A DNA stretch of 386 bases from Escherichia coli. Lineage in GTDB: Bacteria > Pseudomonadota > Gammaproteobacteria > Enterobacterales > Enterobacteriaceae. Positions 1-386 of this stretch are shown here, piece after piece. How positions within the stretch are numbered: the first letter of the stretch is position 1; each line of letters begins with the position of its first letter. A model generated the notes under the pieces. It was not told where the DNA came from and searched no databases. It worked only from the letters and a program-made list of their open reading frames with translations. Position numbers and translations under genes: made by a program. Location: assembly GCF_003334255.1 (NCBI RefSeq), contig NZ_QOWU01000250.1; one strand, given 5' to 3'.

Positions 1-386
1 TCCTGGTATGCCGGTGCTGAAGTGGGTTACCGCTATCATGTCACAGAGGATGCCTGGATTGAGCCACAGGCGGAACTTGTTTACGGTGCTGTCTCCGGGA
101 AACAGTTCAGCTGGAAGGACCAGGGAATGAACCTCACCATGAAGGATAAGGACTTTAATCCGCTGATTGGCCGTACCGGTGTGGATGTGGGTAAATCGTT
201 CTCCGGTAAGGACTGGAAAGTGACGGCACGTGCCGGTCTTGGCTACCAGTTTGACCTGCTGGCGAACGGAGAAACGGTACTGCGTGATGCATCCGGAGAG
301 AAGCGTATTAAGGGCGAGAAAGACGGCCGTATGCTGATGTCTGTGGGTCTGAACGCAGAGGTCCGTGACAACATCCGTTTTGGTCT
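1..386 (+). CDS. Partial CDS (truncated at both ends): C-terminal beta-barrel translocator domain of a serine-protease autotransporter (SPATE / type Va secretion); the window covers roughly the last third of the barrel and stops about 25 codons before the expected C-terminus
   Basis: Seen in sequence: frame 1 is open across all 128 codons, while + frames 2 and 3 contain stops (TGA 128-130; TGA 18-20). The translation shows beta-barrel character: alternating aromatic/hydrophobic dyads (WYAGAEVGYRYHV, AWIEPQAELVYGAV, WKVTARAGLGYQFDL, MLMSVGLNAEVRDNIRFG), tight turns (TED, KDKD, SGKD) and an aromatic-rich composition. Established knowledge (recalled, not searched): this closely matches my memory of the conserved SPATE beta domain (EspP/Hbp/Pet-type), which continues to a C-terminal ...FRYSF beta-signal. 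The gene symbol is left blank because the beta domain is near-identical among SPATE paralogues; candidates include espP, pet, sat, pic, tsh/hbp, vat, sigA, sepA and espC. Confidence is about 0.9 for an autotransporter beta-barrel and about 0.7 for SPATE specifically. Confidence 0.85.

Follow-up and report, generated by a model that had tools for sequence, protein, structure and literature searches.

An open reading frame cut at the edge of a 386-nt Escherichia coli fragment: probable assignment to the prophage-borne SPATE gene eaaC, and the C-terminal beta-signal encoded beyond the edge

A 386-nt stretch of Escherichia coli DNA, analysed here in full and referred to as the window, carries a reading frame that is still open at its 3' edge, which raises the question of which gene the frame belongs to and how that gene ends. 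A preliminary description had recognised a SPATE barrel, and had expected about 25 more codons, a stop and an aromatic C-terminal beta-signal just outside the window. Translation confirmed that the frame is indeed open at nt 386: frame 1 runs from 1 to 384 with 128 complete codons and no stops, GGT at 382-384 being the last codon, followed by CT at 385-386. Elsewhere in the window there are six stops in frame +2, ten in frame +3, and five each in two of the three minus-strand frames, and when the window was shuffled by mononucleotides 20,000 times, frame 1 stayed wholly open in 49 cases (about 0.25%). For the window translation, the NCBIfam autotransporter barrel model TIGR01414 gave a match (E = 7e-20, above the curated cut-off) at model positions 284-407 of 432, so about 25 C-terminal model positions are missing.

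The window is almost certainly (probability about 0.97) an internal piece of the SPATE gene eaaC, which prophage P-EibC carries together with the immunoglobulin-binding gene eibC, as would follow from identity at all 386 positions. In a search of a phage collection, AF151674.1 (bacteriophage P-EibC, host E. coli ECOR-9) contained the window without a mismatch at nt 6863-7248, and these coordinates were confirmed by an exact string search. In the same collection, eaaA of prophage P-EibA matched at 95.9%. Among complete E. coli genomes, 896 records match the window, the best of them at 99.0% and annotated as S6 family peptidase or autotransporter barrel protein; a 100% identical record was not found in this collection. 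The best full-length match in a plasmid search was pet, at 88% identity. The gene itself is not new: eaaC and its SPATE character have been known since its primary description (Sandt and Hill, 2000, Infect Immun 68:2205, PMC97405). The features discussed below are listed in Table 1.

Table 1. Location of features in the window, in the P-EibC sequence and at other loci.
Feature	Location	Strand	Basis or remark
eaaC internal codons, translocator (beta-barrel) domain	window 1..384	+	100% identity to AF151674.1; TIGR01414; PF03797
MLMSVGLNAEVRDNIRFG (EaaC 1293-1310)	window 331..384	+	barrel just upstream of last extracellular loop and last strand
CT, first two bases of CTG (Leu1311)	window 385..386	+	completed by G in AF151674.1
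eibC and two small ORFs	AF151674.1, 5' of eaaC		depositors' annotation
eaaC CDS	AF151674.1 3317-7324		depositors' annotation; product EaaC, AAF63038.1
Rest of eaaC CDS	AF151674.1 7249-7324 (76 nt)		third base of Leu1311 codon, 24 codons and TGA
60-nt palindromic unit (TGCGTATTAACATGAAGGAGATC...GATCTCCTTCCATGAAAATACGCA)	AF151674.1 7327-7386 (79-138 nt beyond window 3' end)		contains hairpin
Stem-loop	AF151674.1 7339-7371		3' of eaaC; depositors' annotation
Further copies of the 60-nt unit	L005 about 10154-10213; L001 about 6677-6736; L006 3001-3066		
DinI-like gene	AF151674.1 7691-7939	opposite to eaaC	
yecD (hydrolase)	AF151674.1 8294-8893	opposite to eaaC	NF008517, E = 2e-116

Full-length EaaC (1335 residues) carries the hallmarks of a SPATE, supporting the recognition of such a barrel from the window. 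An S6 peptidase domain (PF02395, E = 3.3e-83) spans residues 58-298 and includes, outside the window, the catalytic-serine motif GDSGSP at residues 260-265; a PIC/HAP1 beta-solenoid region is also present. The passenger/barrel junction EVNNLNKRMGDLRD (EVNN|LNKRMGDLRD), recognised as a sequence motif, lies at residues 1056-1069, and the barrel domain that follows, from Asn1059 to Phe1335, has 277 residues, the exact barrel length reported for all SPATEs (PMC3153244). The C-terminal 435 residues match the autotransporter barrel model PF03797 (E = 5e-37). Solved barrel chains of EspP, Hbp and BrkA are also matched, that of EspP at E ~1e-180 over the last 298 residues. The match of residues 1-46 to the extended signal peptide model PF13018 is weak (E = 0.27), although it covers model positions 1-49 of 50.

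The part of this protein encoded by the window is residues 1183-1310, or positions 125-252 counted within the barrel domain. The product of its last 18 codons aligns with MLMSVGLNAEIRDNVRFG of EspP in the solved structures. Judging by the start points and names of two solved EspP constructs, 'EspP(b7-12)' and 'EspPbeta9-12', which begin at the equivalents of window residues 4 and 71, the window would span roughly strand beta7 to the first residues of beta11.

The frame reaches the window edge open because the window ends while 76 nt of eaaC, up to and including its natural stop, are still to come. Read directly from AF151674.1, the sequence beyond the edge encodes exactly 25 residues, LEFEKSAFGKYNVDNAVNAGFRYSF, and then TGA, in agreement with the expected codon count. 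Neither an early stop nor a frameshift nor an unrelated C-terminal extension, which the preliminary description had named as outcomes that would speak against it, was seen downstream of the window in this record. As predicted, there is an aromatic beta-signal with a final Phe: GFRYSF, the last six residues of EaaC, encoded 58-75 nt beyond the window edge. It fits the pattern G..[FYW].[FYW]. The tail given in the preliminary description, LEFEKSAFGKYNVDNA(I/V)NANFRYSF, agrees with EaaC at 24 of 25 residues; it fails at a single position, where it has Asn and EaaC has Gly (NAGFRYSF). The version NANFRYSF is the sequence of EspP, both in the solved EspP chains and in the literature. The beta-signal consensus at the C-terminus of the last strand is GXXΦXΦ, and the EspP motif is NFRYSF (PMC11341756, PMC13067283); with Gly in place of the Asn of EspP, GFRYSF is thus an exact fit to the consensus.

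eaaA has the same layout of 25 residues and TGA, and so do chromosomal alleles from four other strains, S19-651, SCU-106 and G1/2 among them. The chromosomal alleles of S19-651 and SCU-106, which are 99% identical, end in NASFCYSF (last six codons at 6442-6459 of L001 and L002). In these alleles, from STEC and commensal strains, Ser replaces the consensus Gly of the beta-signal and position -4 is a natural Cys; a Cys at -4 is also found in an engineered EspP construct in the PDB.

It is very improbable that the window comes from another eaa allele, either eaaA or a chromosomal copy in STEC or commensal strains, in which case its tail could differ from that of eaaC. Alleles at least 95% identical to the window occur in 56 complete-genome records, and the closest chromosomal ones end in NASFCYSF, as described above, rather than NAGFRYSF. 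However, eaaC alone matches the window at 100%, eaaA being 16 bases off and the best chromosomal alleles 4 bases off, and every allele examined goes on for exactly 25 residues to a terminal ...YSF and TGA. Since all of these alleles end alike, the conclusion would be the same even if the window came from one of the others.

Another alternative is that eaaC is a decaying pseudogene, the open frame at the edge being a remnant. The homologue in strain G1/2, which adjoins yecD as eaaC does, is annotated as three CDSs (S6 peptidase, hypothetical and barrel-only; L007 2498-6462), so its passenger is broken, and two reviews, one of them PMC3153244, state that the expression, secretion and proteolysis of EaaA and EaaC were not examined. 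By contrast, eaaC in AF151674.1 is uninterrupted over 1335 codons from ATG to TGA, with all catalytic and cleavage motifs intact. In addition, the four base differences between the window and the 99% alleles are all synonymous, which fits purifying selection, and even the degraded G1/2 copy retains an intact 3' end. We therefore consider decay highly unlikely and reject this reading for the AF151674.1 allele, although a degraded allele exists in G1/2.

The weakest alternative, an antisense gene in the minus-strand frame that is open across the window (frame 3, no stops in 128 codons, window 1-384), has a negligible probability and was rejected as a codon-usage artefact of eaaC: this frame lies in codon register and can be closed only by the sense codons TTA, CTA and TCA, which make up 24 of the 1336 codons of eaaC and are absent between codons 1146 and 1315, a 170-codon stretch covering the window, so that its openness is trivial, while the plus-strand frame has overwhelming homology support and the minus strand bears no annotated features in any record examined.

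The differences between eaaA and eaaC are concentrated in the window, with 16 of the 26 base differences over 4008 nt falling within these 386 nt, at positions 78-309. S19-651 and SCU-106 have the eaaA bases at positions 78, 81 and 84 and the eaaC bases elsewhere in the window, whereas G1/2 shows the opposite arrangement. The alleles thus form a mosaic that suggests patches of recombination among eaa barrel domains.

The preliminary description had also raised a possible rho-independent terminator downstream of the gene. A strong hairpin is found 15 nt past the eaaC stop, with a 10-bp perfect stem inside a longer stem (-31.1 kcal/mol, z = -5.6), a stability that none of the shuffles reached. 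It is directly followed by CATGAAAATACG, with no T-run, and a scan for the terminator consensus did not call the post-eaaC hairpin. A canonical intrinsic terminator is rejected here because of the lack of a T-run; the hairpin may still stabilise or end the eaaC transcript.

This hairpin belongs to a palindromic unit of 60 nt. The homology between eaaC and the eaaA and STEC loci ends immediately after the stop codon, and in the eaaA and STEC (S19-651) alleles the unit lies about 215 nt further downstream, inverted and identical at 59 of 60 positions. The inverted copy is flanked on both sides by TTAAG, a duplication, whereas eaaC has a single TTAAG at this site, which is empty there. G1/2 matches eaaC exactly both at the 3' end of the gene and in the palindromic unit. 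The unit was found in 1,532 of 5,426 E. coli genomes at one to four places each, and this low number per genome led us to reject a high-copy repeat. E. coli 042 carries a copy within a CP4-type island, with the same arms, another loop and unrelated flanks. At a permissive threshold, Rfam gave no match for the unit in AF151674.1 6800-8000; a match to a microRNA family was dismissed as a chance hairpin (23.8 bits, the gathering score being 93). It is possible, if rather doubtful, that the unit is a discrete, small non-autonomous insertion element, as the differing positions and flanks of its copies might suggest. If it does move, it would have inserted precisely where eaaC ends, and the transcript would now owe its 3' hairpin to it.

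With regard to the wider surroundings, the island or plasmid context suggested in the preliminary description was not borne out, and AF151674.1 instead places the gene at the end of a lambdoid prophage beside the chromosomal yecD. Strain G1/2 has the same gene order, followed by aspS, nudB and ruvC (yecD site L007 7432-7998). The order in these two sequences indicates a prophage integrated next to yecD, with eaaC as cargo at its right end. In S19-651, SCU-106 and JNEC-KY179, the pair of eib-like and eaa genes adjoins an ompW remnant, yciEFG and the trp genes (L001-L003, 7190-7315). The presence of such pairs at two or more chromosomal sites is in keeping with prophages that carry them and integrate at different places.

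By analogy with EspP, the part of the protein encoded beyond the window would be the part that initiates assembly. In EspP, residues A1291-F1300 of strand beta12 form backbone hydrogen bonds with strand beta1 of BamA or TamA (PMC11341756), and the substitutions Y1298A/F1300A impair assembly by BAM and TAM (PMC11341756, PMC13067283). The equivalent residues of EaaC, 1326-1335, are entirely outside the window. The missing 25 residues would complete strand beta11 and add the last extracellular loop and strand beta12; the partner of beta12, which ends in GFRYSF, would be strand beta1 of BamA (or TamA), and with this pairing barrel assembly would begin in the outer membrane. Export of the passenger protease by the barrel would come next, and the passenger would be released when EVNN/LNKRMGDLRD is self-cleaved between its two Asn. 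Recognition by BAM, barrel folding and cleavage are thus predicted for EaaC by transfer from EspP, whose barrel is about 90% identical.

Overall, the open edge arises because the window boundary falls inside a known gene; the observation was correct but ordinary, and it matters very little in itself. Its value is one of calibration, as a SPATE barrel was correctly recognised from raw sequence, the number of missing codons was given exactly and 24 of the 25 tail residues were right. The natural variants of the beta-signal, with Gly (EaaC), Asn (EspP) or Ser (some chromosomal alleles, which also have Cys at -4) at -6, could be compared in work on the recognition of BAM substrates. The mildly curious item is the 60-nt palindromic unit, which lies outside the window.

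Among known relatives, EaaC itself (AAF63038.1; prophage P-EibC, ECOR-9) does not differ from the window at all. EaaA (AAF63237.1), from prophage P-EibA of the same strain, likewise has 1335 residues and the tail ...NAGFRYSF followed by a stop; it differs from EaaC at 8 residues over the full protein, as published (PMC3153244), 3 of which, along with the 16 base differences, fall within the window. The barrel of EspP (PDB 2QOM and 3SLJ; BAM-EspP complexes 7TT0-7TTC and others) is about 90% identical to the last 298 residues of EaaC from end to end. EspP shares with EaaC the 12-strand autotransporter barrel family, the cleavage motif and the tail except for one position, NFRYSF in EspP and GFRYSF in EaaC; EspP is plasmid-borne and experimentally characterised, whereas EaaC is prophage-borne. 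At the DNA level, the closest plasmid-borne relative of the window is pet of enteroaggregative E. coli (plasmid pAA2; 88%), and its replicon differs from that of EaaC. The Pet barrel is more than 90% identical to those of EaaA and EaaC, whereas its passenger is less than 25% identical, and the passenger domains of SPATEs share 23-50% identity with one another (PMC3153244).
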